Shown in pieces: positions 21,160 through 53,203 of a stretch of 64,000 bases of DNA. The translations under genes and the position numbers were made by a program. Origin of the DNA: an uncultured Nitrososphaeraceae archaeon. Lineage in GTDB: Archaea > Thermoproteota > Nitrososphaeria > Nitrososphaerales > Nitrososphaeraceae. Position 1 is the first letter of the stretch. Each line of letters opens with the position of its first letter. The DNA is taken from contig CAVSMN010000016.1 of NCBI GenBank assembly GCA_963729045.1, forward strand, positions 1-64,000. The letters run 5' to 3'. The notes below the pieces were generated by a model that made no database searches, had not been told where the DNA came from, and saw only the letters and a list, made by a program, of their open reading frames with translations.

Positions 21160-21445
21160 ATGAATAAAAAAATTCAATTGTCAATCTTGTCAATCTTTAT
21201 TGCAGCAGCCTTAATTGGCTCAGTTGCAACCTATGGTGATAACATGGCCTTTGCAGGTGGAGATAATCATCATGGTGACAAAAACAAGAAAAAATCAAAT
21301 GAAGCAATCCAAGATCTAGAACAATTTTCAGGAACTGGTCAAGATTCATCAATGTGGTTCTGGTAACGATACAACTGCATCATGTAACAACGTAGCCTTC
21401 TCATTTAACTTAAATGATGGCAACAACGCATTAGGTCAAGAGTAA
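21160..21445 (+). CDS. Small secreted Q/N-ladder Cx9C protein, copy A (one extra base near 21352)
   Basis: ORF 21160..21366 continues in a shifted frame CGSGNDTTASCNNVAFSFNLNDGNNALGQE*; near-identical to 25397..25682. Confidence 0.8.
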
Positions 21446-21901
21446 AAGACCTACTTTTTTTCTTACAAAAATTATTATATCTAAAAAAACTCTAAATTCT
21501 TTATATATCTTTTTTCTTAATTCCAAAAATGGTTTGATCTACAGTGAAATACTGGTATGAAATTAAGGATTAATAAACAATGTGATAGTCGATTATGATA
21601 CAATTTTCCCAATTTCTTATAGGATTATCACCTAATTAATTAATCACAATACTGACTAAATCTTATACTATCTTATTTTGCCATAGTAATTATAGAGGGA
21701 TACCGACCTAGGCTTTTTAACGGACAAATTAATCATGATTTTTTCCTAGCTAACATGCAATCAATATTCTAAATTTTTTATACTAGGTGAAGTCATCTTT
21801 CAAAAAATAAAATAAGTTTGAATCTTTTAATTAAAAAAATAGTTTGTTTGAAGACTAATATCTAGATTATCAATCAATACTTGGCCATGTATTTTTGTTA
21901 C

Positions 21902-24900
21902 TTAGTTGCCGAATAAATTCTTCATACTATCTGTAAATCCAGGGAATCCATCAGAAAAAAGGCCACCACCACTGCTGATATTTGTGCTGTTCAGACTTTT
22001 AGATTTGGAAGCTGGAGGTGTGCTATCTTTACTTGAGGCTGGAGGTGTGCTATCTTTACTTGAGGCTGGAGGTGTGCTATCTTTACTTGAGGCTGGAGGT
22101 GTGCTATCTTCAGCTGAATTGTCAGATTCAGTTTCAGGCTCAGGCTCAGGCGGAAGATCAATTGCGTTTACTGTTATTGCTACAGTGGCTGTATTGCTGT
22201 CAACTGTTCCATCATTGGCCTTGAAGGTAAAACTATCCTGTCCTGTAAATCCGGCATTAGATGTATAGACTAGGCTACCTGTGTCTTCGTCAAGGTCTGT
22301 GATGGTGCCTGATTTTGGTTGTGAAACTATAGCATATGTCAAAGCATTGCCACCTGGGTCTGTAGCCGTGAGAGTTATCTCTGTTGGATCAGCCGTATTT
22401 GCAGTTACCTGCTGATCATCGGCTACTGGTGGATCAATGGTCTGCGCTTACTGTTATTGCTACAGTGGCTGTATTACTATCAACTGTTCCATCATTGGCC
22501 TTGAAGGTAAAACTATCCTTTCCTGTAAATCCGGCATTAGATGTATAGACTAGGCTACCTGTGTCTTCGTCAAGGTCTGTGATGGTGCCTGATTTTGGTT
22601 GTGAAACTATAGCATATGTCAAAGCATTGCCACCTGGGTCTGTAGCCGTGAGAGTTATCTCTGTTGGATCAGCCGTATTTGCAGTTACCTGCTGATCATC
22701 GGCTACTGGTGGATCAATGGTCGCGCTTACTGTTATTGCTACAGTGGCTGTATTACTGTCAACTGTTCCATCATTGGCCTTGAAGGTAAAACTATCCCGT
22801 CCTGTAAATCCGGCATTAGATGTATAGACTAGGCTACCTGTGTCTTCGTCAAGGTCTGTGATGGTGCCTGATTTTGGTTGTGAAACTATAGCATATGTCA
22901 AAGCATTGCCACCTGGGTCTGTAGCCGTGAGAGTTATCTCTGTTGGATCAGCCGTATTTGCAGTTACCTGCTGATCATCGGCTACTGGTGGATCAATGGT
23001 CGCGCTTACTGTTATTGCTACAGTGGCTGTATTGCTGTCAACTGTTCCATCATTGGCCTTGAAGGTAAAACTATCCTGTCCTGTAAATCCGGCATCAGAT
23101 GTATAGACTAGGCTACCTGTGTCTTCGTCAAGGTCTGTGATGGTGCCTGATTTTGGTTGTGAAACTATAGCATATGTCAAAGCATTGCCACCTGGGTCTG
23201 TAGCCGTGAGAGTTATCTCTGTTGGATCAGCCGTATTTGCAGTTACCTGCTGATCATCGGCTACTGGTGGATCAATGGTCGCGCTTACTGTTATTGCTAC
23301 AGTGGCTGTATTACTGTCAACTGTTCCATCATTGGCCTTGAAGGTAAAACTATCCCGTCCTGTAAATCCGGCATTAGATGTATAGACTAGGCTACCTGTG
23401 TCTTCGTCAAGGTCTGTGATGGTGCCTGATTTTGGTTGTGAAACTATAGCATATGTCAAAGCATTGCCACCTGGGTCTGTAGCCGTGAGAGTTATCTCTG
23501 TTGGATCAGCCGTATTTGCAGTTACCTGCTGATCATCGGCTACTGGTGGATCAATGGTCGCGCTTACTGTTATTGCTACAGTGGCTGTATTACTGTCAAC
23601 TGTTCCATCATTGGCCTTGAAGGTAAAACTATCCTGTCCTGTAAATCCGGCATTAGATGTATAGACTAGGCTACCTGTGTCTTCGTCAAGGTCTGTGATG
23701 GTGCCTGATTTTGGTTGTGAAACTATAGCATATGTCAAAGCATTGCCACCTGGGTCTGTAGCCGTGAGAGTTATCTCTGTTGGATCAGCCGTATTTGCAG
23801 TTACCTGCTGATCATCGGCTACTGGTGGATCGTTGACTGGCTGCAAATTTTGAACTATCACTTTAATGGTTTTTTCGGAGAATAAATCATTTTTGTCAGT
23901 TATCTTTACTTTGAAAAACATGACTTGATTTGAAGTTCCTCCAAGAATTGGAGCATTAAATGATGCCTTTGACTTATAAATGTCCAACAAATCTACCTTC
24001 ATACCTGCAATTTGACTCCATTCATACTCTAGACTTTTCCCATCTTTTGAATCAAAACTACCCGATGCGTCCAATATCACACCATTAACTCCTTCATCGA
24101 CGGTGATCTCATTTTCTAAACTCACTACGGGTGGGTTACAGCCTGTTCTGTCCCTAATTGACGTGAATGAATTATCGACAAAATTAGTAACGTCTTGATT
24201 AAATAAATCTAACACGGAAGCTTTTGAAAAACTATAACTAAACGAATCTAGATATTCGCAAATTAGATGATCATAGCTCCCATCATCTTGAACATTACCA
24301 ATTGCATTGTTCAATGAATCTGATAATTCTTCTTGTAAGTTAGGAGGCATAATTATTGTAGATACAAAATCACGAAGATTTACAATGGCATCCTCAAGGG
24401 ATATGATTGTCCATGAAAAGAATTGGGGGTTTGGATCTTTGTTGTTTGAGGTATCTACTGCCCTGACTTGAAATGAATGATCTCCTGTTTCAAGGTTCAT
24501 GTAATAACATCCAGATTTATTATTTCCCTGGTAATCTATCGTACTTGGACGCCAATTCCCGTCATCTAGTTTACATTCAAAGCCTTTGACACCTACTAGA
24601 TCAGAACCTGAAAATGCAAATCCAATGTCATCAGAATTTGTAAAATCGTTGTTAACTAAAATGCCCATCCAACCTGTTTTAACAACTCCAAGCTCAGTTG
24701 TGGGAGGGGTGGTATCTCGTACTAATACCTCAAATGAGGCCCTTGCATCATTTCCTGCTTCATCCACAGTGGTGCAATCTACCGTTGAAGTTCCTAAGGC
24801 AAACATGCTTCCGCTTTGTGGTGTACAGCCAACATCTAGAGGAGTCCCGGTAGCATTTGTTGCTGAGACGGTATAGGAAACAACGGAACCTTGTGGTCCT

Positions 24901-25088
24901 GTTGCTTCCGCGATTACTGGACTAGATGGAACATTGATTATTGGATCCTTATCATCATCATTCCCAGAGCCATTATTTTGCGCGTATACGTTAGACCAGG
25001 ATGAATAATTAATGTATACGGTCGCTGATAATATTAATACAAACACAAGTATGAAATTCTTGTTCAATATTAAATCAAAAAAGGGCAA
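21902..25088 (-). CDS. Large secreted adhesin-like protein: HYR-like, PKD/REJ-like and six tandem Ig-like (Big_9/cadherin-like) repeats (extra base near 22443)
   Basis: Signal peptide; EATGPQGSVVSY...SGSMFALGTSTVDC (HYR-like); LDASGSFD...YEWSQIAG (PKD-like); 93-aa repeats with FTGxDSFTFKANDG; ORFs 22434..25088 and 21902..22342 join if one base is removed. Confidence 0.85.
22011..22110 (-). repeat. 27-bp coding tandem repeat, about 3.7 copies (KDSTPPASS linker)
   Basis: gctggaggtgtgctatctttacttgag at 22011, 22038, 22065 and partial at 22092. Confidence 0.95.
22166..23831 (-). repeat. 279-bp coding tandem repeat, six near-identical copies
   Basis: Unit PPVADDQQVTANTADP...TATVAITVSATID recurs every 279 nt (280 at the frameshift). 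Confidence 0.95.
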
Positions 25089-25333
25089 CTATTTAAGTCA
25101 TATCATGATAACAACAACTTCTGAGGAAAAAAAGATATTAATTTTTTCACCGTGACTTAATTGCTATAGTTTTTCGCAATTTCAAAATACCATTTTTAGT
25201 CATTATTTGTCTGTCTGAATCTGTATCAATAAATTTGAGTTTGGAGATTGGGAATCATTGGTATCTAGAACAATAAATCAACTAGCAAAATGTGGATGAA
25301 TCTTAACGAGATTTATTATTAAAGAATGATATT

Positions 25334-25356
25334 TAGTAAGATTATTTCAGAATCTG
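25334..25356 (+). promoter_or_regulatory. Conserved 23-bp upstream element, copy 2
   Basis: Exact match to 21097..21119, ends 41 nt before ATG 25397. Confidence 0.7.
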
Positions 25357-25396
25357 ATTTAACAATCCAATTATATAATACGATACTTTATCTTGC

Positions 25397-25682
25397 ATGA
25401 ATAAAAAAATTCAATTGTCAATCTTGTCAATCTTTATTGCAGCAGCCCTTAATTGGCTCAGTAGCAACCTATGGTGATAACATGGCCTTTGCAGGTGGAG
25501 ATAATCACGATGGTGACAAAAAGAAGAAAAAATCTAATGAAGCATTACAAGGAATAGGTCAAGATACAGAAACACTCCAAGCATCAAGCTGTGGTTCTGG
25601 TAACGATACAACTGCATCATGCAACAACGTAGCCTTGTCATTTAACTTAAATGATGGCAACAACGCATTAGGTCAACAATAA
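25397..25682 (+). CDS. Small secreted Q/N-ladder Cx9C protein, copy B (extra C near 25447)
   Basis: ATG 25397 MNKKIQLSILSIFIAAA then gcagcccttaatt versus gcagccttaatt in copy A; continues as ORF 25437..25682. Confidence 0.8.
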
Positions 25683-25862
25683 GACCTCTTTTTGTTTTTA
25701 AAAATCTGACTTTTAGTAAATATCTTCCATATTCTAATATCTCTAATTATACTATAATTTTTCTATAATATTCGGTTTTCGTAGATTTGAAAAAAGAATT
25801 TGTTACTCTGATAATGAATCTTTACGAATTACATATCTTGGTTATGCTATTTAGTTAAATTA

Positions 25863-25970
25863 AATTCCTCATTAGTAATTTTATCTATCATAAAACTATA
25901 CCAGAAGTTAATATACTATCTATAAACTAATTCCTCATTAGTAATTTTATCTATCATAAAACTATACCAG
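25863..25970. repeat. Perfect 42-bp direct repeat, two copies, 24-nt spacer
   Basis: aattcctcattagtaattttatctatcataaaactataccag at 25863..25904 and 25929..25970. Confidence 0.9.
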
Positions 25971-26068
25971 TATTTGATATTTGTCGAGTGTTGTATAATC
26001 AAGATCTGAAACTAAGAGAAGATAAAATTTTCAATATTTCATAAATGATCTACCATCGATACTAATAT

Positions 26069-26868
26069 GTGAATAGCAAAAGCCGTCAACATGCTAAATC
26101 ATACATCCTTACTTTAATGGTACTTTTGAGTATTTTTAGCACAAGTGTATATTCAAAGCGTTGACGCATTTAGTATAGGTTTACCTGATATTCCTTTTCT
26201 TAATTTTAATTTTGACAATAATTCTCCTAAAGAAGATAGTTCATCCATTTTTGATTTGGGTGCAATCACAAATAATATTCCAAAATCCCATTCCGACGAA
26301 GATGACGGGAAGGATAATTCAGAATCTGATTATAGGGCGTTCTTATAGCAGCAATAGCAATGGACAGTCCAATGATGAGACTACTCAACCTAGTTCTGCA
26401 TCTCTTCCATTTCCAGCAAATATGATGAACTCAGTTTATAGTAACGAAAATGAGAATACAAATGATATCAACAAAACGCCTTTAAAACTCCAAGATACTT
26501 TACCATTAGTTGGTGATTATTCTGACGTTCCATCTACCTTTCTCTCAGATACAATGACTTTTGATGATGATGTAATCCCAGGGCAATATATTGTTGTATT
26601 TAAAGACGATGATACAACTGTCTCTGACTTTTTTTCAATGCTATCAAGTAAAATTGACACACAGAACATCGAAGTGCTACAAGTCTATGAGAATGTGCTA
26701 AACGGATTGACAATTCGAGCCCCAAATGATAAAGTTGTCGAAACCATAGAGCAACTTCCGATTGTTGACTATGTAGAAAAGGATATGATGGCTCAGGCTT
26801 TTGCACAAACTTTACCAAGTGCGGTTCTAGAGGTCCTATCATTGGACACCAAAACTACAAAATCCTAA
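26069..26868 (+). pseudogene. Secreted protein ending in a subtilisin propeptide (inhibitor I9) domain; truncated S8 protease, frameshifted
   Basis: IPGQYIVVFKDD...VYENVLNGLTI...IVDYVEKDMMAQAFAQTLP followed by an early stop; signal peptide from GTG 26069 in another frame. Confidence 0.7.
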
Positions 26869-27248
26869 CTAATTTTGACAACTATAGGTTAGTTCTAGAC
26901 ATAATTGCATATTGCAGATATTTACTTAATTTATGAATTACCAACAAATGCTGCTTCAGCTGACAGATTTTTTTTGCTGTAATTGATAGCCATTCGATCC
27001 TTTACTTGAACTATCCTTTAGCAGGCTTTTAACTACTGGTAGTGTAGTGTCAACTGATAGGGATTCTAATCTATCCATTCTTGCGATGGAATTGGACATG
27101 GGTACTGTGCATGTGATGAAAGTGAACTTTAAGATCCACTTTTTTTGTGAAAAATAACTTCTCTTGTATCACCCGATACATTCTGTTATAAAACGATTGG
27201 CAATTACAAAAAAATTAAAGTTCTGAAGGCACAGCAGAATTCAAACAA

Positions 27249-27552
27249 TCAGGGGCAGCTTTGTATGCAGGCTTGTCCTGGTGGGCATGGAGGCATATCG
27301 CAATCTACCGTATTGTCTTGATTGTCATCTGTACCTGTATCTGAGGAATTCTCTGTGGATTCATTTTGAGCCTGTCCTACATCCAACCATATCTTTCAAG
27401 TCAAATGGCATTAGTTGGTCTTTGGCACTAACGATGGATGCTGAGACGGTAAGAAAGTTGTTTTCGAAGTAAGATGCAAGAAAAGTTGACAAAACTAGGA
27501 TGCCGAATATTGATAGAGTTAATATCTTGTGCAATAATGAATGTATTATCAA
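27249..27552 (-). CDS. Small secreted protein with C-terminal CDMPPCPPGQACIQSCP motif (frameshift near 27385)
   Basis: ORF 27361..27552 signal peptide; shifted frame reads DVGQAQNESTENSSDTGTDDNQDNTVDCDMPPCPPGQACIQSCP*. Confidence 0.7.
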
Positions 27553-27624
27553 ATGGTATAAAAAATTTTGATCCTTGACTACCGTTATATACTAAGTTGA
27601 ACTTTTTTCAACGGTGCAAATTGT

Positions 27625-27891
27625 ATGAACATAATCAAAACAGAAACACCGTTTTTAGTTGAAGCCAAATCGACTGGTGGTAATAACAGAAAAAACAGAA
27701 ATATTACTTACCACTTTATAGAATCCGCTCATACATTATGCTTGAATAAGGAAGAACTACTGCAAGCACAGCTTAAGGCCTGTCAAAGACTATTAAAACT
27801 TCCATATGAAAAAGAGGATGACAAGGACATTATTGAAAATGAGATAATAAAATTAAGTCAGGTTTTGAATGTAATTCGCAATTATCACTGA
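27625..27891 (+). CDS. Hypothetical protein
   Basis: 88-aa ORF, helical composition. Confidence 0.55.
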   Translation: MNIIKTETPFLVEAKSTGGNNRKNRNITYHFIESAHTLCLNKEELLQAQLKACQRLLKLPYEKEDDKDIIENEIIKLSQVLNVIRNYH

Positions 27892-28092
27892 GAGCAAATC
27901 GCTGAGAACAAACGTCACGATGAATAAACCTGACAAATATTTGTGATGTGGGTGAGATTTAGTCTTTCTTTATCCCTTTAGCATTCTTTTCTCGAGTTGC
28001 ATTTTGAGATTATGATGTTATTCTATGAATAATAGAAATATGACAACAGTATTTAATTTGAACCTTAGATTTCTGGATACGTTTTTTTATTT

Positions 28093-28512
28093 TCATAATG
28101 TCCATGGTTTTAGATTCTTTAAGAGATCATTCGGAATTGATTCACTCCATGTCTTTAAAAATTCCAAGTCTTTTTTCTTATCTCTAAGTTCGTCTGGTAG
28201 AATTATTGGGATCTCTTCGGTTATGGGATAAAATCTAAGACATGACCTACAAAGCAACAGGCCCTCCTCAACAATCTCAGTGGCCCCTTTATTCATATCT
28301 GAAGCAGAATTACTTGTTGGACTTGTACTTGCATCGTTCATTTTTCTACCATTTTCATTCTCACTTGTTAAGGGATTTTTAGTATCTTGACCCTCGTTAT
28401 TTGAGATTGTATTAACACTAGCAAATATTGCTTTAGCCTTAAACTGAAATAGCTCGAGACTAGATACCTTGTCAAATGGACATACAAGAATATCTAAGAG
28501 TTTTTTATTCAT
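28093..28512 (-). CDS. trm112: Trm112-family methyltransferase activator
   Basis: LLDILVCPFDK...EGLLLCRSCLRFYPITEEIPIILPD with a low-complexity insertion. Confidence 0.88.
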   Translation of the reverse strand: MNKKLLDILVCPFDKVSSLELFQFKAKAIFASVNTISNNEGQDTKNPLTSENENGRKMNDASTSPTSNSASDMNKGATEIVEEGLLLCRSCLRFYPITEEIPIILPDELRDKKKDLEFLKTWSESIPNDLLKNLKPWTL

Positions 28513-29070
28513 GATTATTCACAATGGGAAACAATATAATTTAATTATTTAATATTTGATCACATCCTTTTTTCAACTAGGAAGTTGGAACGATTATCTT
28601 TAATGTATGGTAGGCTGTGGTATTTGCTCCCGATTTACAAAACATTCTACGGTCGTTTTTTAACATGTATTTTTGCCTGTAAGCATTGTTATGCCTATTT
28701 GATAAACAATTCATTCTACGTATAAACAGAACATCTTGAGTCGTCACCTAACCTATCGATATGAAAGATCCAAAAAAGAATCAATAGCATAGACTCTGAG
28801 TGTTGGGATAAATCTACTATTTATTTTTTAATGGTATATCTAAGAGAATCGGGTTATTTTCTCCTTTTTTCAAATCTATGGATTTTTTCAATAATGGGGA
28901 GTTGCATAGTAATTTATTTTGTTGATAGTTATCGGCTTTTCAAATATTCCCGTGTTACCTCGCGGACTAAAACCGGCGGATAATAGAAATGAAATATTAT
29001 TTTGGCCCGAATTCTCCAATATCCAGGTCATTACCCAAGTTTGATCCGACCAAAGAGAATAACGCGTTGC

Positions 29071-29844: not shown

Positions 29845-29957
29845 AAAAAAAATTGTGATATTATTCTTATTTAAGATTTATTATTAATATCAATTTATTA
29901 GAAGATTTTTGAATCATTTGTTAAAAAGTTATATTCCCACAACTTTTAGATAAAAAA

Positions 29958-32783: not shown

Positions 32784-33744
32784 TTGGATCAATTCAACGA
32801 GTTCTTGTTACTGGTGGGGCAGGATTTATCGTAGTCATAATGTTGATGAATTACTAAAGAGAGGATTTGAAACATTTATAATTGATAATTTTTCTAGAGG
32901 TAAATTGGATAATTTAAAACATAATCTTTCAAACCCAAAGTTGCATATTTTACGTGGAGATATTTCCCAAATTCATGATATTTTGAAAGATTTAAAGGAT
33001 TTAGATATCGTATTTCATGAAGCTGTAATAACAAGTGTCACAGAATCAGTCAGAAATCCTGAAAATGTATTTGATTCAAACGTAGCATCCACCATGAAGG
33101 TAATTGATTTCTGTGTGAATTATGGTGTAAAAAAGATTTTTTTTGCATCATCCTCAGCTGTCTATGGGGATCTACCCAACGATGTATTAAGGGTAGATTT
33201 AGCGTGCAAACCAACCTCTCCATATGGGGCTTCAAAGTTATCCGTGGAAAACTATCTTCATGGTTATTGGAAAACTTATGGGCTAAAATGCGTCTCATTA
33301 CGATATTTCAATGTATATGGTTCTAGACAAAGTAATATTGAGTATAGCGGAGTATTAACGATTTTTATTGGTAGGTTGATAAACAATCTAGCCCCTATTA
33401 TTTATGGCGATGGGTCCCAGACTAGGGATTTTGTAAATATTAAAGACATAGTATATGCCAATATGCTCTCTATGGAGTCTAACAACGCTGTGGGTGATAT
33501 TTTTAATATCGGAACCGGAGTTCCTACCTCAATTTTAGATCTAGTTCAGATTGCAAAGAACACAATCGGCAAGAAAGAAATTTATCCAAAGTACACTGAC
33601 GCTCGGGCGGGAGATATTCTTAAAAGTCTTTCGGATATATCTAAAGCCCGAAACTTGTTAGGATACTATCCAAGAATAGATCTCCGAGATGGACTTGAAA
33701 GTTTTGTGAGATCTTATTTATCTTCATCGCTCATCCATGTTTAA
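32784..33744 (+). CDS. NAD-dependent nucleotide-sugar epimerase/dehydratase (5' frameshifts)
   Basis: RVLVTGGAGFI upstream of ORF 32905; ASSSAVYG, YGASK, LRYFNVYG, GDGSQTRDF. Confidence 0.88.
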
Positions 33745-34450
33745 ATCATTAGGTTGAACGAATTCATAGCATTTTTAGAACATTCTTATGGGTTTGCAAT
33801 AGATTGCCAAAGAGTATAGGAAAATTTAGAAAGAGTTATCCTGATATTTCTTCTTGGTTGTATTTTTTTATTGAAGTCAATCCTATCAAACAGAGAAATT
33901 TCAACAATACACTATCGCAAAGGAGTCTATGATTTAGCAAATTATTATGTAGAGATACTATTTTTGACTTGTTATTTTTCGAAGGTTCTATATATGATGA
34001 TTTCAATCCCTTAGACAAAAAAATTTGTATACTGTATCACAAAGAATGCAATGTGTATACCTGTATTCGCTTACTTCCAGTTCCTTGCATAAGGTGCATC
34101 AATACAGAAATATTTCAATCCTTTTCACATCTTTACTTTGTAAATAAAGATCATACATTAGAAACACCATGAATTCGCTCACAACAAAAAATCAATATTT
34201 TTAGTCCCTAAATAAAAAAGGCGGAAAGAATTTGCCTTAGATCCCTAATTTTATTCTAATGGCTCATAAATGTTCTGTAACCAAGTAAATGAAATCAAGA
34301 ATCAATAGTGTAGGAACTAAAAAAATATGGGGGTTTCTAAAATCAATTGTGACAATTTTTGTTTGTGGTCCAAAAAAAAGTATACCAGAGTGCGAGCTAG
34401 CCTCAATACCAATAGAAGTTCTTAATATAGTATAATATCATACTATAATA

Positions 34451-35520: not shown

Positions 35521-36039
35521 TTATCTTTGTGCTAATGCATTATTGCCGGTATTGACCTGGTTTTGGAAATTAAAATTGTTGCCAGAACCGACTGTATTCC
35601 CGCCTGACACAACCTGGCTATTTTGACTGGAGGATTGTGATTGACCTATTCCTTGACTAGCTTTGTTGCCACCCTTTCCATTTCCATCTTGTGCCAATGC
35701 ATTGTTTCCACTGTTCTGTTGGTTTTGGACGTTTATGTTGTTACATGAAGCACTAGTACTGCCGCCGGAAACACATTGAGAATTTTGACTAGAGGATTGT
35801 GATTGACCTATTCCTTGAGAAGCCTTGTTACCATTACCATTGTTGTTATCATTATGGTGCCTAAAGTAATTCTTGCACCAGTTCTTACTATGATCATCTC
35901 TACAGTCTTCCCAATCATTGTACTTTTGCTTCGCTAATACGCTATTTATTCCGGATATAGATGGACCCATAATCATTACTGTCGCAAATACTGCTACAAC
36001 TAATAGTGCAGTTTTTTTTGTATGCTTTGACCTTAACAT
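35521..36039 (-). CDS. Secreted Q/N-ladder protein with two repeat units, copy C
   Basis: Signal peptide, WEDC-x7-C minidomain, then NKASQGIGQSQSSSQNSQ...GNNALAQ twice. Confidence 0.85.
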   Translation of the reverse strand: MLRSKHTKKTALLVVAVFATVMIMGPSISGINSVLAKQKYNDWEDCRDDHSKNWCKNYFRHHNDNNNGNGNKASQGIGQSQSSSQNSQCVSGGSTSASCNNINVQNQQNSGNNALAQDGNGKGGNKASQGIGQSQSSSQNSQVVSGGNTVGSGNNFNFQNQVNTGNNALAQR

Positions 36040-36456: not shown

Positions 36457-36714
36457 TTATTGTTGGCCTGCTGCGTTGTTACCATCTTGTGCGTTTATAG
36501 ATAAGCCTACATTGTTACATGATGCAAGCGTATTGTTGTCTGTTGCACATTCTGAAAATTGACCTGTCTCTGATAATTGGCCTAAAAATTGTGCTCCGTC
36601 GTTGCTACTTTTTTTGGTTGCAAATGCCATATTATCTCCAAATGTTACTGTTGAACCCACTAATGCTGCTGCAATAAAGATTGACAAGATCGACAATTGA
36701 ATTTTATTATTCAT
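36457..36714 (-). CDS. Small secreted Q/N-ladder Cx9C protein, copy D (intact)
   Basis: Signal peptide nearly identical to copies A/B; QFLGQLSETGQFSECATDNNTLASCNNVGLSINAQDGNNAAGQQ. Confidence 0.85.
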   Translation of the reverse strand: MNNKIQLSILSIFIAAALVGSTVTFGDNMAFATKKSSNDGAQFLGQLSETGQFSECATDNNTLASCNNVGLSINAQDGNNAAGQQ

Positions 36715-37267: not shown

Positions 37268-37276
37268 TTTAAATAA

Positions 37277-43647: not shown

Positions 43648-43680
43648 GTTATGTAACTTAAAATATTTGGATGAACAATC

Positions 43681-44618: not shown

Positions 44619-44698
44619 GCAAGTACATAGATTAGGCTATAATTTCTTTTTTTTCATCCAAAATTACAATCTGACGAGATATAGGCATATCAGTTGAA

Positions 44699-45286: not shown

Positions 45287-45466
45287 AAAAAAAATCATTG
45301 GTTTGACTTTAAGGACTAATGATAAATAAAGTACGGTAATTTTATTTATTATTATTTGTTTGCACATCAACTCAATAGAATTCTGGTACGCATTTTTTCA
45401 TAATATATTTCAAAAAAATAAGGTGAAGGTCCGCAAAATACTAATACCAATAGATAAACGAACTTT

Positions 45467-45835
45467 CTATGGTGCTATATTGTCCCTTTTGAGATTACTA
45501 AGTGGGTTTTTTTCTCGTATGGCCAATATTCCTGCAATAACAAATAATGCCAATGCTGGTATTGCGAACCATTGAATAAGTGCGAAAAGCATTACACCAC
45601 ACGCTATCAAGATACCTCCAACAATTTTATTATTTTTAATCTTAAATGCAGCAAGAATAGCTCCTACGTTTATTGCTATTATAGCTATTGCTATTAGTAG
45701 AGCCCAGCCAACAAAAAGGGCCAATATTGGGATTCCAACAAAGCTATTTATCAGAAAATACAAAAAGAGCCCGATAAAGGGAATAATGAGTCCTAAAATA
45801 GCTGTAATAATAGTTAGCTTTTGATAGCCTTTCAT
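45467..45835 (-). CDS. Four-TM membrane protein
   Basis: 122 aa, strongly hydrophobic. Confidence 0.7.
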   Translation of the reverse strand: MKGYQKLTIITAILGLIIPFIGLFLYFLINSFVGIPILALFVGWALLIAIAIIAINVGAILAAFKIKNNKIVGGILIACGVMLFALIQWFAIPALALFVIAGILAIREKNPLSNLKRDNIAP

Positions 45836-46328
45836 ATTTTTGTATATAGAGAATAGTAATTAAGTCATGATCCTATTGCTCTTCCTATTATCTTGGTAAG
45901 TACCCCTGTACAGGACCGTTTTAGTAAATAAAGATTAATTTTAATAATGAATGATGTTGAAAGTTGAAAATTGGGTGACAATTAAAATATCAACCCTTTT
46001 TCCGCCATAATGCCAATCGTGGTGTAATGTGATGCCGACCCTTTCAACAACTTCCAGATTTTCCAGACGTGTATTGGTTTGAAGGTAAGACATTGGGATA
46101 TCAAGCAAGGGATTTGGATGTTGTTTTTGCTTGACAACAATGCTTTATTAGATGCAATATTAGGTGCACCTAACTATAATATAAACAATTTCTTGATTAT
46201 CAAAAGTAATAATATCATCAACAAGAATTAAACCGATTGTATATGTTTCAAGCATAAAAACATGGTTTTATTATTAATATCAATATAATTCACTAGTTTT
46301 AAATAAGAACTTACGATATCTCCTATAT

Positions 46329-46475
46329 ATGGCAAAATGTCCATCTTGTAAGGAATCAATAAATCTAAGCCAACTAATAACAGAGGAATTTGAGGATGGG
46401 GACCTATTATTCAAGTTCTTAGGCTTGAGTTGTCCCAAGTGCGAGATACTTTTAAAAATACAAAAAATTGATTAA
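46329..46475 (+). CDS. 48-aa zinc-ribbon microprotein (not in ORF track)
   Basis: MAKCPSCKESINLSQLITEEFEDGDLLFKFLGLSCPKCEILLKIQKID*, two CPxC knuckles; tttaaata box about 30 nt upstream. Confidence 0.78.
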   Translation: MAKCPSCKESINLSQLITEEFEDGDLLFKFLGLSCPKCEILLKIQKID

Positions 46476-46713
46476 TACACATTTAATAGACAACTAACGA
46501 ATTTTGGATCTGTCTTCGGGTCTTCTTTTTTTAATTAGTCATTCAATTTTCTTTTTTCGATAATATTGGATTAAATGAATTTGTACTTTAGAAATCCATT
46601 ATTTGTTATTCTCTAGAATGACAGCGAGGAAATTATTATTGGACAAGCAAACTAGTGTCCATCTTTTTGTTATTACCTATACAAGCAGAATTTTGTATTG
46701 ATTAATAAATACT

Positions 46714-48171
46714 ATGACCAATATATTTACTTGTTTGACAAACAACACTAGTAAAAATTCAAAATATTTTGTTATTTTAGATATCGTGGGATTAGATGTT
46801 TCTCGTATTGAATCTTCAGCACAAATATATCCTAACATATCCAGTTTGTTTGAGAACGACGGTGAATATGGATACATGAAACCCGTGTTTCCCTCAGTTA
46901 CATGTACCTCACAGGCTAGTATTTTGACAGGAAAATATCCAAAGGAACATGGTATTATTTCAAATGGTTTTTTCGATAGAGAAAACTTCCAGACTTTGTT
47001 CTGGGAGCAATCTACTAATCTGGTTCAATCTGAAAAAATATGGGATACACTAAAAAACAAAAATAACATGCTCAAAACAGCCCTATTATTCTGGCAAAAT
47101 TCTATGTATTCGAACAATGACTATGTTGTCACTCCTCGTCCTATCCATTTAGAAAATGGACAGATGGATATGTGGTGTTATTCTAAACCGGTTAACTATT
47201 ACGAGGAAATAAGCAAAGAAGTTGGCGAATTCAATCTGATGAATTATTGGGGCCCATTTGCATCCATAAAGTCCTCAGAATGGATATCAAAATCTGTTCA
47301 ATACACTATCAAAAACCATCGTCCCAATTTGTTGTATGCATATTTTCCACAACTCGATTATACTGCGCAAAAATTTGGGCATTCTAGTTCCCAAGTAACC
47401 GACGATTTAAAGCAAATCGATATTTATGTTGGTAATATTATAGAAAAGGTCAAGGAAGCAGGTATCTTTGATGAAACTCATTTTCTATTGCTCTCTGAGT
47501 ACGGATTTAACGATGTCAAAGATGCAATACCAATAAATAGAATATTAAGAGAAAAGGGATTGCTTCAGGTGAGAACAATTAATGGAAAAGAGTATATTGA
47601 CTATGAATATAGTGATGCGTTTGCAATGGTAGATCATCAGATAGCACACATTTATATCAACAACAGAAACAATATGAGCAAAGAAAAGATTAAGATTGCT
47701 ATTGAAGGTGTTCCCGGAATCGACAAAGTTTGCGATGAGGAAGAAAAACAAAAACTTCACATAAACCATTCAAGAAGTGGAGAGCTTATTGCCATAGCGG
47801 AAATAGACAAATGGTTTAGTTACTACTGGTGGTACGATGAACAGAAAAATAAGAGCCCAAATTTGGATGAAACTGAAACTGATGATGGCAATGACAATGC
47901 ACCTAGCTTTACTAAAACAGTGGATATTCACAGAAAACCCGGTTATGATCCTCTAGATCTTTTCATAGACCCAAAAAGAAAATGCATCTCCACAGATACC
48001 CGTCTAATAAAGGGTTCCCATGGACGACCATATAATATTGAATCAGGAGAGGGATTATCGGCCTTCCTATCAAACAAAAAGATTGAACACATCAAAAAAG
48101 AGAAGTTTGACGGGTGTCCAGTAATAAATTGCCTGGATATTTTTGATATTGTAAAAAAGAACTTTATTTAA
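46714..48171 (+). CDS. Alkaline phosphatase superfamily nucleotide pyrophosphatase/phosphodiesterase, EboF-like
   Basis: PVFPSVTCTSQASILTG, HGIISNG, VTPRP, SEYG, AFAMVDHQIAHIY, VDIHRKPGYDP, IKGSHGR. Confidence 0.88.
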   Translation: MTNIFTCLTNNTSKNSKYFVILDIVGLDVSRIESSAQIYPNISSLFENDGEYGYMKPVFPSVTCTSQASILTGKYPKEHGIISNGFFDRENFQTLFWEQSTNLVQSEKIWDTLKNKNNMLKTALLFWQNSMYSNNDYVVTPRPIHLENGQMDMWCYSKPVNYYEEISKEVGEFNLMNYWGPFASIKSSEWISKSVQYTIKNHRPNLLYAYFPQLDYTAQKFGHSSSQVTDDLKQIDIYVGNIIEKVKEAGIFDETHFLLLSEYGFNDVKDAIPINRILREKGLLQVRTINGKEYIDYEYSDAFAMVDHQIAHIYINNRNNMSKEKIKIAIEGVPGIDKVCDEEEKQKLHINHSRSGELIAIAEIDKWFSYYWWYDEQKNKSPNLDETETDDGNDNAPSFTKTVDIHRKPGYDPLDLFIDPKRKCISTDTRLIKGSHGRPYNIESGEGLSAFLSNKKIEHIKKEKFDGCPVINCLDIFDIVKKNFI

Positions 48172-48232
48172 GAAGTTAGGAAAATTAGAAAGCATATTAG
48201 CATAAAATAATAGAAAATAAGAATCAAAGGAA

Positions 48233-49069
48233 ATGGCATTTTCATATTCTATTACATTATCTTCATTTCTGAACGTACAAAAAAACGAATTAGAAACTCT
48301 AGAGAACCTTAGCCGACTCGGTTTAACTGAAGTGGAATTGTATGGAGAACCAGATGAGGTAAACTCGGAATCCCTTAAGGATCTTTTGAATTCATTTGAT
48401 ATTAGGGTAATAGGTATCACTGGAATGTGGGGTAGGTCGAGTTTGAATGGATGGAAAAGACGTCTTTTAAGTAACGATAAATCCATACTGAAATATTCTG
48501 AAGATTATGTGTTAAAGTGTATTAAGTTATGTAACTATTTTGGAGGAAAACGAATTAATTTATGTTTGTTTTCAGATCCTATTTATTCTTTTGATGTAAC
48601 CCATAGAAACGTTAATGAAAACAACAAGACTAAAGTGTTAGAAAGTTGTGTGCCATTGTTGAACCGTCTTTTAAAAACTGCAAGAGAAGAAAATGTCTCT
48701 TTGATGGTCGAACCACTAAATCGTTATTCAACACCTTACTGTTGTACTTATTCAGATGTAATCTCGCTGATTGAAAAGTGTGATGAATTAGAACTCATGT
48801 TAGATACCTTTCATATGAATATTGAGGAAGATTCTTTTGAGGATGCGATCTTAAATTCCCACCTTATCCTCTCCCATATGCACTTTGCTGATAACAACAG
48901 GAAGATGCCTGGTTTTGGCCATATCGATTTTAATATGATAGTAAAAACCTTAAAAAAAATTTCATATGATGGCAAAATTAGTTTTGAACCCACAATCTTG
49001 AATAGAAATTATTATTCTGCAGTGAAATTTGGATTAGACCATGTAAAAAAACTTGATTTAAAATATTAA
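48233..49069 (+). CDS. Ketose 3-epimerase-like (DTE/IolO-type) TIM barrel
   Basis: VEPLNRY, LDTFHMNIEE, HFADNNRKMPGFGHIDF, SFE. Confidence 0.85.
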   Translation: MAFSYSITLSSFLNVQKNELETLENLSRLGLTEVELYGEPDEVNSESLKDLLNSFDIRVIGITGMWGRSSLNGWKRRLLSNDKSILKYSEDYVLKCIKLCNYFGGKRINLCLFSDPIYSFDVTHRNVNENNKTKVLESCVPLLNRLLKTAREENVSLMVEPLNRYSTPYCCTYSDVISLIEKCDELELMLDTFHMNIEEDSFEDAILNSHLILSHMHFADNNRKMPGFGHIDFNMIVKTLKKISYDGKISFEPTILNRNYYSAVKFGLDHVKKLDLKY

Positions 49070-49167
49070 ATATATAAAAATTCTGAAATGATGACTACTT
49101 AATATGAAAATATTCCGCAGTATATCAATCTTTATTAATAAAGGCAATAGCATAATTACAGATTATT

Positions 49168-49398
49168 TTGAGTGAAGCCTATGTATTATTGAATGTTAAT
49201 TATAAGAAACAATCCAACGTAATAGATCAAATAAAACAGTTATCTACAGTAAGGGCAGTAAAATCTGTCTATGGAATTTATGATCTAGTGATCATTTTTG
49301 AGTCGGATAATTTGCAACAAGTAAAAAGCGAAATAGATGAAAAGTTACCTCTTATTGAAGGAATAGAGAACATGACCACTTTGATATCTGTTTCATAA
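49168..49398 (+). CDS. Stand-alone Lrp/AsnC ligand-binding domain
   Basis: AYVLLNV...VYGIYDLVI...IENMTTLI. Confidence 0.85.
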   Translation: MSEAYVLLNVNYKKQSNVIDQIKQLSTVRAVKSVYGIYDLVIIFESDNLQQVKSEIDEKLPLIEGIENMTTLISVS

Positions 49399-49445
49399 AA
49401 GAAGACAAGGCTTGTTTTGTTAAAGGTAGAATATTGGAGAAATGA

Positions 49446-50435
49446 TTGAGAATGTCAATTGAAGAGTATGAAGTTATTATAGTAGGAGCAGGGCCCTCAG
49501 GACTTTCAGCGGGCATATTTGTAGCAAGACAGAGGACCAAATGTCTTTTGATTTCAAAGGACTTGGGTGGACAGATGAACCTGATTCCTAAACTTGAGAA
49601 TTATCCCGGAACTATGATGTCAAGCGGACCACTCCTTGCTAAAACATTGGAAAATCAATATTTAACATTTAATGGTGAAATGACTTATGATACTGTAGAA
49701 AAGGTCGATCAAATTGAAGGCAGTACAGACCTGAAGGTAAAAACAGGACGTTCTGAATATCTCACAAAAGCACTAATTCTTGCACCAGGAAAAGTTCCAA
49801 ATAATTTAGGGGTTGAAAATGAAATCCAATTTCAAAACAAAGGCGTTCATTACTGTACAAAATGTGACGCTCCTTTTTATCAAGGCAGAACTACTGCTAC
49901 TGTTGGAGTCGGGGGCTACCTTTTAGAATCTGGCATATTGTTGTCTAGAATGGCATCAAAAGTATACCTTATTTATCGTGGTGGTCAGCTCGGAGGAGAT
50001 AGGGATATGATAGAATCTATTAAAAAGAAAAATAACGTAGAACTCATTCCAAATAGCTCAGTTACCCTAGTTTCAGGTAACAACTCTTTACAGCAAATTC
50101 AAATTAAAGATAATGCGGGTGTAGAGAAAATGATAAACGTTGATGGTTTATTTGTCGAAATGGGATCCAAGATAAATCTAGATTTTGTAAAACATCTTAT
50201 TAAACTTAACACAAAAGGTGAGATCGAGGTTACTGATGGAGGAAAGACCACTCACCCAGCCATTTTTGCGTCAGGCGATGCAACAAACATTCCTTATAAG
50301 CAGATCGTGGCAGCATGCGGTGACGGTGCGTCTGCAGGAATTTCTGCATTTAATTATATTGAGAAATTAAAAGGAAAACCTGGTATCCGTTCTGATTGGA
50401 AGAAAACTATTGGTGATACTGTGTTCCATTATTAG
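49446..50435 (+). CDS. trxB: Thioredoxin reductase family flavoprotein
   Basis: VGAGPSGLSA, GVHYCTKCDAP (CxxC), IFASGD, KQIVAACGDGA. Confidence 0.9.
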   Translation: MRMSIEEYEVIIVGAGPSGLSAGIFVARQRTKCLLISKDLGGQMNLIPKLENYPGTMMSSGPLLAKTLENQYLTFNGEMTYDTVEKVDQIEGSTDLKVKTGRSEYLTKALILAPGKVPNNLGVENEIQFQNKGVHYCTKCDAPFYQGRTTATVGVGGYLLESGILLSRMASKVYLIYRGGQLGGDRDMIESIKKKNNVELIPNSSVTLVSGNNSLQQIQIKDNAGVEKMINVDGLFVEMGSKINLDFVKHLIKLNTKGEIEVTDGGKTTHPAIFASGDATNIPYKQIVAACGDGASAGISAFNYIEKLKGKPGIRSDWKKTIGDTVFHY

Positions 50436-50577
50436 GGATAGATTGTGACGCTCTTTCTTCCTTATTCTCTTTAAATTAAGCACTTGCTAGGGTACTTTAC
50501 TCCATACTTTTATTAAAAAAACAGCATTTTTTATTGGTAATATCTAGACTTTATTAAATCATTATTTACCCCCTGGC

Positions 50578-50814
50578 CTACTTTTGACGATCTTTGTTAT
50601 CTAGATAATTCGTTAGATTCATTGAATAAAATTTTTTCAATGAAGGAATGTTCTTTTCGTATTCATCAAAAACGATAAATAATGTAAATTTGATAAACTC
50701 CTCAATCTCATTTGAGTTTATTGACCCAGATTCAAACAGGTCCTTAATTATCGTTTTCAATTTGGTTAGCTTTTCTTCTTCTATACTAATACTGAAGTTT
50801 GTGTATGTTGTCAC
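50578..50814 (-). CDS. Hypothetical protein
   Basis: 78-aa ORF. Confidence 0.45.
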   Translation of the reverse strand: MTTYTNFSISIEEEKLTKLKTIIKDLFESGSINSNEIEEFIKFTLFIVFDEYEKNIPSLKKFYSMNLTNYLDNKDRQK

Positions 50815-51175
50815 TTGGATTATGTACTTTATTTGGTATTTATCCTAATCTAGGTAAATTTATATAAAGATTTTATTGATGAATCCGTTATAATATTGAA
50901 GTTTCGATTAACAATAAGTTAAAACAGAGCTAATGCTTCTAGAATTTTGGGTATTTGGTCTTGTTTGGACAGAAATGAGATAAGCAATTCTAGGCGGACA
51001 ATGAGAGCTGTATATACCAACATCCCCAATATACCTCAATTCAAATCTGAACAATCGTACAAATATACTACCAAATGGTTGATTTCATAAGAAGAATTAA
51101 TAAATAAATTTAGTTAGCAATTTTTTACTGCTACATTCTTCAAATTTGATATAAATTATAAAAATAAAATCCTTA

Positions 51176-51748
51176 ATGTCTATGACCAGTACTAAAAGTT
51201 TTTCTACAAAAAACGCAGGTGTTCTCGTAGTAGCAGTATTTTCCATAGCAATCTCAATGGGATTAAGTCAGGTGTCCTCAGCAATGGCCCTGGACGAGCT
51301 TTTGGATTGTAAAGGAGTTGCAAATGGATCTAATGATCTTGATACGAAAGATAAAATGTCGTGTGATGAAAATGAAGACAAAGTATCAAAAAATTCGGAT
51401 ATCAAATCTGAAAATGACGATTCTGCATCTTCAAATGATGATGATGATGCTGATCAAAGTAGTGGAATAGAAAGTAAGACTGATAGTGTTCTAACGGCAG
51501 GTCCTGCAGTAGCATCACCAGATGATCACATCATTAAACCAATCAACCTAAATAAGGGCACAGATTCAGACGAGCCACTAAAAACAAACAATGATAAGCA
51601 CAAACAGTCCGCCGAATCTTCACCAAAACAAATATTTCAAGATAAATTGGATTTAAGAGACCAATTTGACAAGAATACAAATACTGGTGTTTCAGAATTA
51701 TACGAATCATTTGATTTACCCTATACCGCAATTTACAAGAACCAGTAA
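51176..51748 (+). CDS. Secreted acidic low-complexity protein
   Basis: Signal peptide (AMA), two Cys, Asp/Ser-rich. Confidence 0.65.
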   Translation: MSMTSTKSFSTKNAGVLVVAVFSIAISMGLSQVSSAMALDELLDCKGVANGSNDLDTKDKMSCDENEDKVSKNSDIKSENDDSASSNDDDDADQSSGIESKTDSVLTAGPAVASPDDHIIKPINLNKGTDSDEPLKTNNDKHKQSAESSPKQIFQDKLDLRDQFDKNTNTGVSELYESFDLPYTAIYKNQ

Positions 51749-51993
51749 ACGCATACTTCACCAAGCCTTTTTTTAAATTTTTTTTATTAATTATTATTAT
51801 CATAATGATTCACTTTAGATAGATTCAGATGTTTAATCTTGAACACATGTTAAATCCAACGGATATCGACATTGATCTAAGAGATAGAAAACATAGATTG
51901 ATTAATGTAATTTTTAGATTATTCCTAGTTCGAAAAAAATAAATGTAATACCTATACCAACCAATAAAATAGTAGTATTTTGAAATGCATCAG

Positions 51994-52611
51994 CTAGACA
52001 GTGTGTATTAAATCTGTAAGATTTCTCTTTGGTTTGGGAAATAGCATTTTCCTTGGATATCCAATGCATAAGATCGAGGAAGGCTCCAAATCAGTACCAA
52101 CCACTTCTTTAAGTAATTGTTCATTAAACATGCCTATCCAAATGGAGCTCAATCCTAAAGCATGAGCAGCTAATTGGGCATAACCAGCTGCAAGGGTAGC
52201 GTCTTGAATGGAAAATTTATGTAATACCTCTGGATGAAAATTTAATTTAATTCGTGAAGGGTTAGAACAAAATACTAAAACCAATGGTGCATTTACATAT
52301 GGCTGGTTATTAGCGGCTTTTATTAGGTTCTGTTTTAGCTGGGTATTCTTGAGATGATAAATTTCAAAACCCTGGAACCCACCCGCAGTGGGTGCTGTGT
52401 CAGCAGCGGCAAAAATGATATCTATTTTCCAACCCTCTATTTCTCTTTCCTCAAATTTCCTCTGTGAGCGCCTATTGAGCATAACATTAAAAATATTACT
52501 ATCCAAGACATCGTCCATTTCAGACTTTTCTTGCGGGGTTGGTTCTTTTGGGTAAACTTTTGGAAGTATATCGGAAGGGAACATACTATCCAAAATTCTA
52601 TTATCTTCCAA
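51994..52611 (-). CDS. Nitroreductase family protein
   Basis: RRSQRKF, APTAGG, QDATLAA...ALGLSSIWIG, CIGYP. Confidence 0.9.
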   Translation of the reverse strand: MEDNRILDSMFPSDILPKVYPKEPTPQEKSEMDDVLDSNIFNVMLNRRSQRKFEEREIEGWKIDIIFAAADTAPTAGGFQGFEIYHLKNTQLKQNLIKAANNQPYVNAPLVLVFCSNPSRIKLNFHPEVLHKFSIQDATLAAGYAQLAAHALGLSSIWIGMFNEQLLKEVVGTDLEPSSILCIGYPRKMLFPKPKRNLTDLIHTV

Positions 52612-52951
52612 TACAAGTAGTAACCAATAGTTATTAAAAAAGATTCTAGATTGAATAAATAAATTCAGTTTTGATATTCGATTTTATTTGTATATTATGA
52701 ATTATGTTTGTACCATTCAAGTTACCTTGGACCAATATGTAACAAAGTTCTATTTAAAAGAAATGATAAAATTTTGCATATAATTTAAATAATCAAATGT
52801 ATGTTAAATAATTACCTTAATTTTGTAATGGTCATTTCTACAAGTAGAAGTTTCTATTTTATTTCCTAAATTAATGGATTTGTGTCAAATTTGGGTTTGA
52901 TTTCCAATTTAATAAACTTTATATTTGTGTCTTATTCTAAATAAGATACAC

Positions 52952-53203
52952 ATGAACACAAAAACAGTTCTAGCATGTAGTGCAGCAGTAATTGCATTTG
53001 CATTAATTGTAGCTCCATTAGCAATATCTCAAGATGCATTAGCAGTGAAGAATAAAGCAAACAAACCATTAAGTAACCAAACAATCTCAATCAACAAAGC
53101 CTATCAATTAGCGGCGGCGGTAATTTCTTATCTGGTAACAACGTAAACTTCCAAGAACCAACAAAACTCGGTAACAACGTCTTAGGCCAAAGTCAGCGAC
53201 TAA
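52952..53203 (+). pseudogene. Degenerate Q/N-ladder protein, copy E (Cys-less type)
   Basis: Signal peptide to QDALAVKNKA, then shifted frame QTIK*PNNLNQQSLSISGGGNFLSGNNVNFQEPTKLGNNVLGQ; TAA falls at a conserved Gln position. Confidence 0.7.

Follow-up and report, generated by a model that had tools for sequence, protein, structure and literature searches.

Results

Five genes of one repeat family

We analysed a stretch of 64,000 nucleotides from an uncultured Nitrososphaeraceae archaeon (positions 1 to 64,000 of contig CAVSMN010000016.1, assembly GCA_963729045.1), hereafter referred to as the window. To judge from the names carried by its closest proteins and loci, the genus is Candidatus Nitrosocosmicus. 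The window holds five genes, here designated A to E, all built on the same plan: a Lys-containing n-region, a hydrophobic stretch ending in AxA or xLA, a Lys-rich spacer and a Gln/Asn-rich unit of 45 residues, with which the protein ends (...GNNAxGQQ and stop). Signal peptide, spacer and C-terminal unit had been ascribed to these five genes in an earlier reading of the bare sequence (the original prediction), and lists of open reading frames (ORFs) together with three-frame translations place all of these elements where that reading had put them.

Genes C and D are intact and lie on the reverse strand. Gene C (35521-36039) encodes 172 residues, comprising a signal peptide, a helical N-domain with two cysteines and two units, of which the first (35689-35823) has a Cys pair and the second (35527-35661) has none. 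The N-domain, located between signal peptide and units (residues 37-62, window 35860-35960, KQKYxDWxDCRDDHSKNWCKxYF), was modelled by AlphaFold2 (AF2) as two helices with a predicted local distance difference test score (pLDDT) of about 80. Paralogues of gene C on two other contigs of the same genome (G000:C16:118614-119129 and G000:C9:230832-231854) have a different, acidic two-Cys N-domain, HYGVDxDxCKDxxDYYxDxEEACDKNL. Gene D (36457-36714) encodes an 85-residue protein with a single unit (36463-36597); cleavage after AFA, before Thr, would leave a mature peptide of about 53 residues. Public data contain 361 homologues of gene D, the closest with 95% identity. Orthologues of C and D showing 60-96% identity occur across many metagenomes, and this degree of conservation suggests that both genes are under purifying selection.

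The three remaining copies, on the forward strand, had been reported as frameshifted, which holds for A and B, each with a single-base shift. Gene A (21160-21445) is a one-unit member, 94 residues long in its relatives, whose frame changes around 21353. Blastx aligns frame 1 over 21160-21354 and frame 2 over 21353-21442 with intact public proteins of 94 residues, at 91-97% identity for residues 1-65 and 90-93% for residues 65-94, and its unit (21323-21439) is matched by the hidden Markov model (HMM) of the unit described below. Its paralogue, gene B (25397-25682, unit 25542-25676), has an extra C at 25449, within the signal peptide, and is 77-84% identical to intact 94-residue public proteins (blastx). 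The two evidently stem from a stretch of about 380 nt that was recently duplicated (21079-21461 versus 25316-25698) and that covers the gene, some 80 nt upstream and some 20 nt downstream. Thus the presumed promoter of A (21079-21159) has a 99% identical counterpart upstream of B (25316-25396), and similar sequence precedes gene D.

The extra base of gene B is absent from the contigs of two DNA metagenome runs, one contig each (X1, depth 21.2/21.2; X2, depth 7.91/7.91), the X2 contig probably representing an orthologue of the A locus because it runs on into the downstream flank of A. No indel near 21353 is among the metagenome indels displayed, 36 further ones lying outside that display, and the reads are uninformative on gene A. 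The nearest named loci have 80-89% DNA identity, too distant for judging frameshifts. The single-base shifts in A and B may be assembly errors or may be strain-specific.

Gene E (52952-53203) is a decayed copy with one unit. Its signal peptide is intact. Alignment with an intact paralogue (contig C21, 118341-118619) requires several indels, the first half of the unit is gone and the rest, a remnant at 53080-53190, lies in another frame. Gene E is thus a probable pseudogene.

A large family within one genome

The genome to which the window belongs comprises 2.85 Mb in 22 contigs and is 87% complete. An HMM of the unit was iterated from four units of the window and matches in the whole genome were counted at E < 1e-3. 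We found 101 units in 60 stop-to-stop ORFs, which merge into 49 loci, exactly five of them in the window; a tblastn search of the same genome with gene D gave 67 matches. The description of a five-member family was therefore an approximately tenfold understatement. Proteins with one unit (28 loci) or two units (12 loci) make up 40 of the 49 loci, and the remainder have three (2 loci), four (3), six (1), seven (2) or as many as eleven units (1). At most three residues follow the last unit in 38 of 49 loci. Six loci are broken into several ORF pieces.

Signal peptides, called by a simple rule for hydrophobic stretches and not by a dedicated predictor, were found in 35 of 49 loci; most of those failing the rule are frame-broken or have a non-ATG start. 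All 22 intact proteins examined have an AxA cleavage site. The translations display the features of Sec signals, namely a positively charged n-region, a hydrophobic h-region and AxA, with neither a lipobox Cys nor a twin Arg. Secretion of these proteins, as originally proposed, is thus well borne out by signal peptides and cleavage motifs. After removal of the signal peptide, the same 22 proteins consist of 16.8% Asn, 15.3% Gly, 14.1% Gln and 13.7% Ser and contain no Pro (0.0%). Hydrophobic residues account for 8-23%; most of the mature proteins are acidic, with an isoelectric point (pI) of about 4.1, and a few are basic.

The family loci show a moderate tendency to cluster. For 26 of 49 a second locus of the family lies no more than 10 kb away, versus 13.7 ± 4.1 (maximum 27) in 2000 trials of random placement. 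One two-unit gene is present three times (G000:C13:41921-42409, C18:41288-41776 and C18:53433-53921), the copies being 99-100% identical over about 520 nt. Their identity covers only the gene and its promoter and the flanks are unrelated, which points to recent duplication or gene conversion within the family, acting on segments of gene size.

Conservation pattern of the unit

The profile of the unit has 45 columns, with the consensus AxQGIGQSQSSxQNxQCVSGxxTxxSCNNxNxQxQxNxGNNALAQ in 42 aligned units. Among these, Q3, Q7, N29, G39, A42 and Q45 are invariant. The unit is not significantly divisible into two half-repeats (hhalign).

Cysteines occupy columns 17 and 27. That they are kept or lost together had been noticed in the window, and the rule extends to the whole genome: in 80 of 80 full-length units they are either both present or both absent. 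Counting by regular expression gave 42 units with both, 33 with neither, one with the first only and four unmatched, and the five exceptions, when read by eye, all proved to be two-Cys units, including one C-x8-C and one C-x11-C. In Cys-less units Val and Gly stand in place of the pair. In an alignment of 486 unique units from this genome and public homologues (effective number 154), C17-C27 is also the strongest covarying pair, scoring 0.47 versus 0.21 for the next one.

Conservation alternates along the unit with a period of two. Odd columns have a mean conservation of 0.73 and even columns of 0.44 (permutation p of about 1e-4), the conserved series reading Q3, I5, Q7, Q9, S11, Q13 ... N29, N31, Q33, Q35, N37, G39, N41. 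Because of this alternation the unit is best understood as extended strands with one conserved face. A polar Gln/Asn face of this periodicity in a Pro-free repeat core is what is looked for in the sequence of a functional amyloid. Moreover, the antidiagonals i+j = 42 and i+j = 40 of the covariation matrix have the highest mean values, about 2 standard deviations above the others, and lie beside that of the Cys pair (i+j = 44). This modest signal fits two strands running antiparallel to each other and joined by a turn at columns 18-26.

Predicted fold

The mature part of a seven-unit paralogue (404 residues) was modelled by AF2 from a 14-row alignment, with a pLDDT of 60.5 and a predicted template modelling score (pTM) of 0.51. 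Each of the seven units forms a pair of strands, about 20 and 18 residues long, connected by a short turn. The linkers between units are coil, several with pLDDT below 50. The model suggests, at modest confidence, a parallel beta-solenoid of two sheets with one unit per rung. It agrees with the period-two conservation and with the covariation, both of which are signals independent of the model. The earlier idea of the unit as a stackable strand-turn-strand element is thereby strengthened by conservation and, with the same modest confidence, by the seven-unit model. A homo-oligomer prediction for four copies of mature D scored 0.02 against a mark of 0.42, which is evidence neither way.

The seven-unit model was compared with 48,161 representative chains using VIA-align. 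Parallel beta-helices of the SufB/SufD type (PDB 5awf, 5awg, 1vh4, 9h78) were the best matches, with Z of 14.0-15.0, a root-mean-square deviation (rmsd) of 2.8-5.6 Å and 203-219 aligned residues. The likeness concerns solenoid geometry only; SufB and SufD are cytoplasmic proteins of Fe-S assembly, share 4-9% identity with the model and resemble it in neither repeat, composition nor secretion. They were followed by Pontibacter CsgA (8c50_A, Z 11.5-12.0, 166 residues aligned, rmsd 8.7 Å, 18% identity) and the E. coli CsgA fibril (8enq_A, Z 7.7, 111 of 111 residues aligned). A repeated run gave Z 14.9 for SufD and 12.0 for CsgA. About 45 other beta-solenoids matched at lower Z: two-partner secretion (TPS) domains, autotransporters, tailspikes, pectate lyases and antifreeze proteins.

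The last of these bring up the question whether the family could consist of hydrophilic beta-helical surface proteins that form no fibres and act in protection, by retaining water or guarding against desiccation in soil, or by binding ice or minerals. Extreme hydrophilicity, the lack of Pro and richness in Asn, Gln, Ser and Gly would suit such a role, the organism labels of the sequencing runs indicate soil hosts, and ice-binding beta-helices do appear among the fold matches (3p4g_A, Z 7.5; 5uyt_A, Z 2.5). These matches are, however, weak and generic for beta-solenoids, Pfam and NCBIfam contain no such family matching in sequence, and one-unit proteins are too short to make a stable beta-helix alone. 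We regard this explanation as quite unlikely.

Searches against known families

Scans of proteins C, D and B against Pfam (at E ≤ 10) and NCBIfam gave nothing above threshold, and the unit profile had 0 matches at E ≤ 10 among PDB sequences. Named public homologues are all annotated as hypothetical proteins, three of them with an evidently spurious JGI transporter label. In the ESM Atlas only unnamed Nitrososphaerota clusters were matched (0.85-0.91), with no usable match among named clusters. Among 1.84 billion representative proteins, the unit profile detected 298 clusters at E ≤ 1e-3 and 114 at E ≤ 1e-10, having at most nine units each. The full-text literature searched on Nitrosocosmicus and Thaumarchaeota, a search that did not extend to the supplementary gene lists of PMC11559005, contains no description of the family.

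Particular attention was paid to curli. The curlin repeat (Curlin_rpt, PF07012) had 0 matches at E ≤ 10 in the six-frame translated genome, where 11 candidates were scored, and the E. coli control was positive. CsgG (PF03783) had 0 matches at E ≤ 1 in the same genome, 87% complete as it is; families of the CsgG, CsgE, CsgF and CsgC type are absent among 28 ORFs around the window genes, the genome-wide search not extending to CsgE, CsgF and CsgC. When the unit profile was aligned with the five CsgA repeats of E. coli K-12 (hhalign), 10 columns were paired, Q-x-N-x-G-N-N-A of the unit with Q-x-G-x-G-N-x-A of R1-R5, with a probability below 1% and P of 0.06-0.07. The motif S-x5-Q-x-G-x-G-N-x-A-x3-Q occurs five times in E. 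coli CsgA and the unit does not match it. The chaplin family (PF03777) was not matched in the Pfam scan at E ≤ 10, and FapC is not among the VIA-align matches of the seven-unit model. The original prediction had claimed no homology to curli, Fap or chaplins, and the Pfam scan, the genome search with the curlin repeat and hhalign all agree with it. Our family thus stands outside these three, and it may work like them.

Gene C alone gave matches, far below threshold, to sublancin families (TIGR04196, E 0.012, 16.2 bits against a cut-off of 40; PF19151, E 2.7, 8.6 bits against 26.9). Together with a mature size of about 50 residues and a disulfide, they might indicate that the one-unit proteins are secreted bioactive peptides, either antimicrobials resembling archaeocins or signals, and that the larger proteins are unrelated repeats. 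Yet the sublancin scores come from stretches of low complexity, and most of the peptides have an acidic pI (about 4.1) and are polar instead of cationic or amphipathic. No transporter, immunity or modification gene lies beside any of the five window genes, and as many as 11 copies of the same unit occur in tandem. Such a role for the one-unit proteins is very improbable.

Distribution among archaea

A search of archaeal genomes with an HMM of the unit had been proposed as a check, and it places the family almost wholly in one genus. At E ≤ 1e-5 the unit is present in 33 of 33 genomes of the window genus and nearly absent outside it. In other genera of the same family it was found in 4 of 167 genomes, that is, in 3 of 25 of a second genus, in 1 of 4 of a third and in 0 of 138 belonging to 15 further genera; the count for the phylum outside the window genus was 0 of 399 genomes.

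The single positive genome of the third genus (G018) contains three tandem genes (locus L037, 1477-2874, reverse strand) with signal peptides, His-rich spacers and a divergent unit, INQSNxQSxVCxSGGxTxGSCNNxAxNxNxGNAVSANV. In the two-unit gene among them the second unit is Cys-less, the same succession of units with and without Cys as in the window genus. This sister version implies that the superfamily is somewhat older than the genus.

Two contigs with bacterial titles were also considered. L109, titled as a Gemmatimonadales metagenome-assembled genome (MAG), carries a four-unit family gene at 4001-4846 within an AT-rich stretch and high-GC ORFs from about 5380 on; given this switch, we read it as a chimeric contig and not as a bacterial homologue or a gene transfer. 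L097, titled as an Actinomycetes MAG, carries several family genes and has 34% GC at the extreme end of an 887-kb contig; it too is probably chimeric and was rejected as a bacterial homologue.

Genomic surroundings and transcription

None of the 28 larger ORFs in the neighbourhood of the window genes is related; they have housekeeping or surface functions and code, among others, for an isochorismatase, Usp, a Big_9/cadherin-like protein, SIMPL, an alcohol dehydrogenase (ADH), an epimerase, an NHL propeller, a phosphodiesterase and a nitroreductase. No transporter, protease, chaperone, sortase-type, immunity or modification partner was found among them. Adjacency of C and D is preserved in four of the nine orthologous loci that reach far enough upstream, the closest four (L039, L041, L042 and L047), and not in the more distant L043, L045, L048, L049 and L056. 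A conserved C-D pair of nucleator and subunit was considered and rejected, since adjacency is kept in only these four loci and there is no evidence for a nucleator. Cross-linking of the Lys-rich spacer to Gln by a transglutaminase likewise found no support, the genome having one unlinked PF01841 gene.

In RNA-library run X16 a contig of 469 nt covers gene C (35538-36006) with 8 differing letters, and in run X15 all three bins over C and D are covered. These contigs are compatible with transcription of C and D; such libraries can contain DNA, and their depth is unable to rank genes. Two short genes of N. franklandianus, NFRAN_RS13445 (168 nt) and NFRAN_RS13965 (156 nt), take places 6 and 19 when genes are ordered by transcripts per million in biofilm (12,045 and 4,757), where their expression is raised 6- to 9-fold (PMC12448741, Dataset S3). 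We considered them as family members and rejected them, both being too short.

Between A and B lies a gene (22434-25088, reverse strand) for a surface protein of 884 residues with five Big_9/cadherin-like domains as well as HYR and PKD-like domains. An adjacent ORF (21902-22342, reverse strand) encodes a Big_9 fragment of 146 residues and may be its broken continuation. Six tandem repeats of 279 nt, 93-99% identical, extend over 22164-23859, and both DNA and RNA-library depth are much raised over this region, probably because of these repeats. The paper that reports adhesion genes to be absent from Nitrosocosmicus evidently refers to families other than this surface protein. Shorter repeats were noted at 22008-22115 (a 27-nt tandem repeat, seen as three overlapping 54-nt copies) and just downstream of B at 25863-25980 (two 52-nt direct repeats 66 nt apart). 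The epimerase ORF (32905-33744, forward strand) is matched by its Pfam profile only from position 42, the N-terminus being missing, and comparison of its region with metagenome run X1 shows indels at 33814/33816 and a 149-nt skip at 33610-33760. This could be a further frameshift or an assembly problem.

Discussion

Candidatus Nitrosocosmicus comprises ammonia oxidisers widespread in soil, wastewater and on skin, and it is described as unlike all other ammonia-oxidising archaea in having no S-layer, a thick wall, surface filaments and a habit of forming aggregates and biofilms (PMC11559005, PMC12448741, PMC13245735). According to PMC11559005, five closed genomes of the genus are all without genes for the S-layer protein (slp) and its anchor (slaB), and cryo-tomography reveals a wall about 18 nm thick, devoid of lattice, and hair-like filaments of about 30 nm. 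The same paper proposes that the wall is a glycocalyx of glycoprotein or glycolipid, rich in amino sugars. N. franklandianus is presented in PMC12448741 as the fastest biofilm former, by deposition of aggregates formed beforehand; no homologues of the adhesion proteins known elsewhere are present according to that paper, which gives the mechanism of aggregate attachment as unclear.

Against this background we consider it nearly an even chance that the genes described here form a large family, restricted to one genus, of structural proteins that are exported by Sec to the cell envelope or matrix and whose stacked rungs build fibres or wall in a genus without S-layer. The structural idea agrees with three independent, though soft, lines of evidence. 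Each 45-residue unit would be a strand-turn-strand rung, strand 1 spanning about columns 1-18 and strand 2 about columns 28-45, with the conserved Gln, Asn and Ser residues displayed on one face. In about 60% of units a disulfide C17-C27 would staple the two strands beside the turn. Within multi-unit proteins the rungs may be stacked into a parallel beta-solenoid. The one- and two-unit proteins are too short for a stable solenoid of their own, so that intermolecular stacking would be needed, either on one another or on multi-unit paralogues. The outcome might be extracellular cross-beta fibres or sheets of the curli kind. Such material could contribute to the wall, which is thick and has no lattice, to the hair-like filaments and to the tendency of Ca. 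Nitrosocosmicus to aggregate. Polymerisation, location in the wall and a role in aggregation are steps that we infer. In a cell with a single membrane Sec export would be sufficient, which fits the absence of secretion and chaperone genes nearby.

Several observations weigh against this interpretation. The confidence of AF2 is low to modest, and AF2 may favour solenoids for Gln/Asn repeats in general; for gene C, modelled with 42 orthologues, pLDDT is 50.6 and pTM 0.20, its units appearing as long strands with pLDDT below 50. A Z below about 13 may, in repeats, reflect a mere common arrangement, and the matches to CsgA fall below this value. Foldseek found no PDB match of the seven-unit model at E ≤ 0.001, its top two, non-significant rows being CsgA (E 0.22) and FapC (9u4u_A, E 0.86) with template modelling scores of about 0.06-0.11, that of CsgA being 0.06. 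Subfamily structure confounds the covariation, in which i,i+4 pairs are numerous among the highest-scoring ones. About a quarter of the family loci are frame-broken in the assembly, and the RNA-library contigs are no proof of transcription. Finally, units are separated by linkers of 10-19 residues (Gly, Ser, Asn, Asp and Lys), which beads-on-a-string modules would fit too, and some share a protein with other extracellular domains, an arrangement also seen in modules for binding or anchoring. One fusion type (P0400) consists of a signal peptide, an unknown domain of about 230 residues, an acidic linker and three C-terminal units; another protein has a beta-propeller and PKD with a unit-like C-terminus, and a third joins signal peptide and unit to a NosD-like beta-helix.

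Such linkers and fusions lead to the most serious alternative, which we consider possible at a lower probability. Units could fold independently as disulfide-stabilised hairpins on flexible linkers and bind an envelope polymer, be it an amino-sugar glycocalyx or extracellular polymeric substances (EPS). Multi-unit proteins would then cross-link polysaccharide and fusions such as the P0400 type and the propeller-PKD protein would anchor their other domains to it by C-terminal units. The conserved polar face of Gln, Asn and Ser could resemble a glycan-binding surface, and the amino-sugar-rich glycocalyx proposed for the wall (PMC11559005) would offer a ligand. However, 40 of 49 loci encode a signal peptide with one or two units alone, which would be odd for a pure anchor, AF2 stacks the units in one solenoid (the pTM being that of the seven-unit model) and not in separate domains, and searches of Pfam, NCBIfam and PDB sequences turned up no carbohydrate- or wall-binding family that the unit resembles.

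If the units do stack into fibres, the closest functional parallel would be curli. Curli are encoded by csgBAC-csgDEFG, use type VIII secretion and are known from Proteobacteria and Bacteroidota. Like CsgA and CsgB, the proteins of our family are secreted, rich in Gln, Asn, Gly, Ser and Ala, free of Pro and, on the predicted fold, composed of strand-turn-strand repeats with fixed Gln and Asn. They differ from CsgA in their rung, which has 45 residues and is separated from the next by linkers, whereas the rungs of CsgA have about 22 and are contiguous. They differ also in the presumed disulfide staple of some 60% of units, in the many single-rung subunits, in occupying 49 scattered loci instead of one csg operon, and in their host, an archaeon with one membrane.

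Other systems share single traits with the family. Streptomyces chaplins comprise many small secreted paralogues of about 50 mature residues and longer forms as well, have a Cys pair and make amyloid-like surface fibres. Our proteins resemble them in being secreted paralogues of about 50 residues accompanied by longer forms and in the Cys pair. Chaplins are hydrophobic, unlike our proteins with their low content of hydrophobic residues, which moreover have no sortase-type anchor and end after the last unit. FapC of Pseudomonas is likewise secreted, rich in Gln and Asn and made of repeats that linkers separate; it differs in giving neither a sequence match nor a significant fold match, and no genes resembling fapABCDEF lie beside the window genes. 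Among archaea, MspA of Methanosaeta and the sheath of Methanospirillum are extracellular cross-beta material replacing or supplementing an S-layer. These sheath amyloids belong to other phyla and to our knowledge have no Gln/Asn repeat architecture. What would be new here is an archaeal candidate for a secreted Gln/Asn-repeat beta-solenoid or functional amyloid, disulfide-stapled and largely made of single rungs.

A bolder version of the fibre hypothesis can be formulated, which we hold to be doubtful. The family could be the main protein material of the envelope, making up the 18-nm wall and the 30-nm hairs, and would be an independently evolved, chaperone-free analogue of curli. Single-rung subunits, stapled by disulfides and needing only Sec for export, would assemble into polymers on paralogues with several rungs, and multidomain proteins would be plugged in by their C-terminal units. 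The family would have expanded as the S-layer was lost, and this expansion would be what lies behind aggregation and biofilm formation.

Since the family is confined to, and expanded in, a genus without S-layer, it provides a concrete candidate for wall and filaments. About 50 loci and 100 units, nearly confined to Nitrosocosmicus, now stand as candidate genes of its envelope, and the question of what the wall of these archaea is composed of becomes directly testable. If cross-beta fibres are indeed formed, they would represent a second, independent invention of curli-type architecture, the first in Nitrososphaerota, achieved with single-rung, disulfide-stapled subunits.

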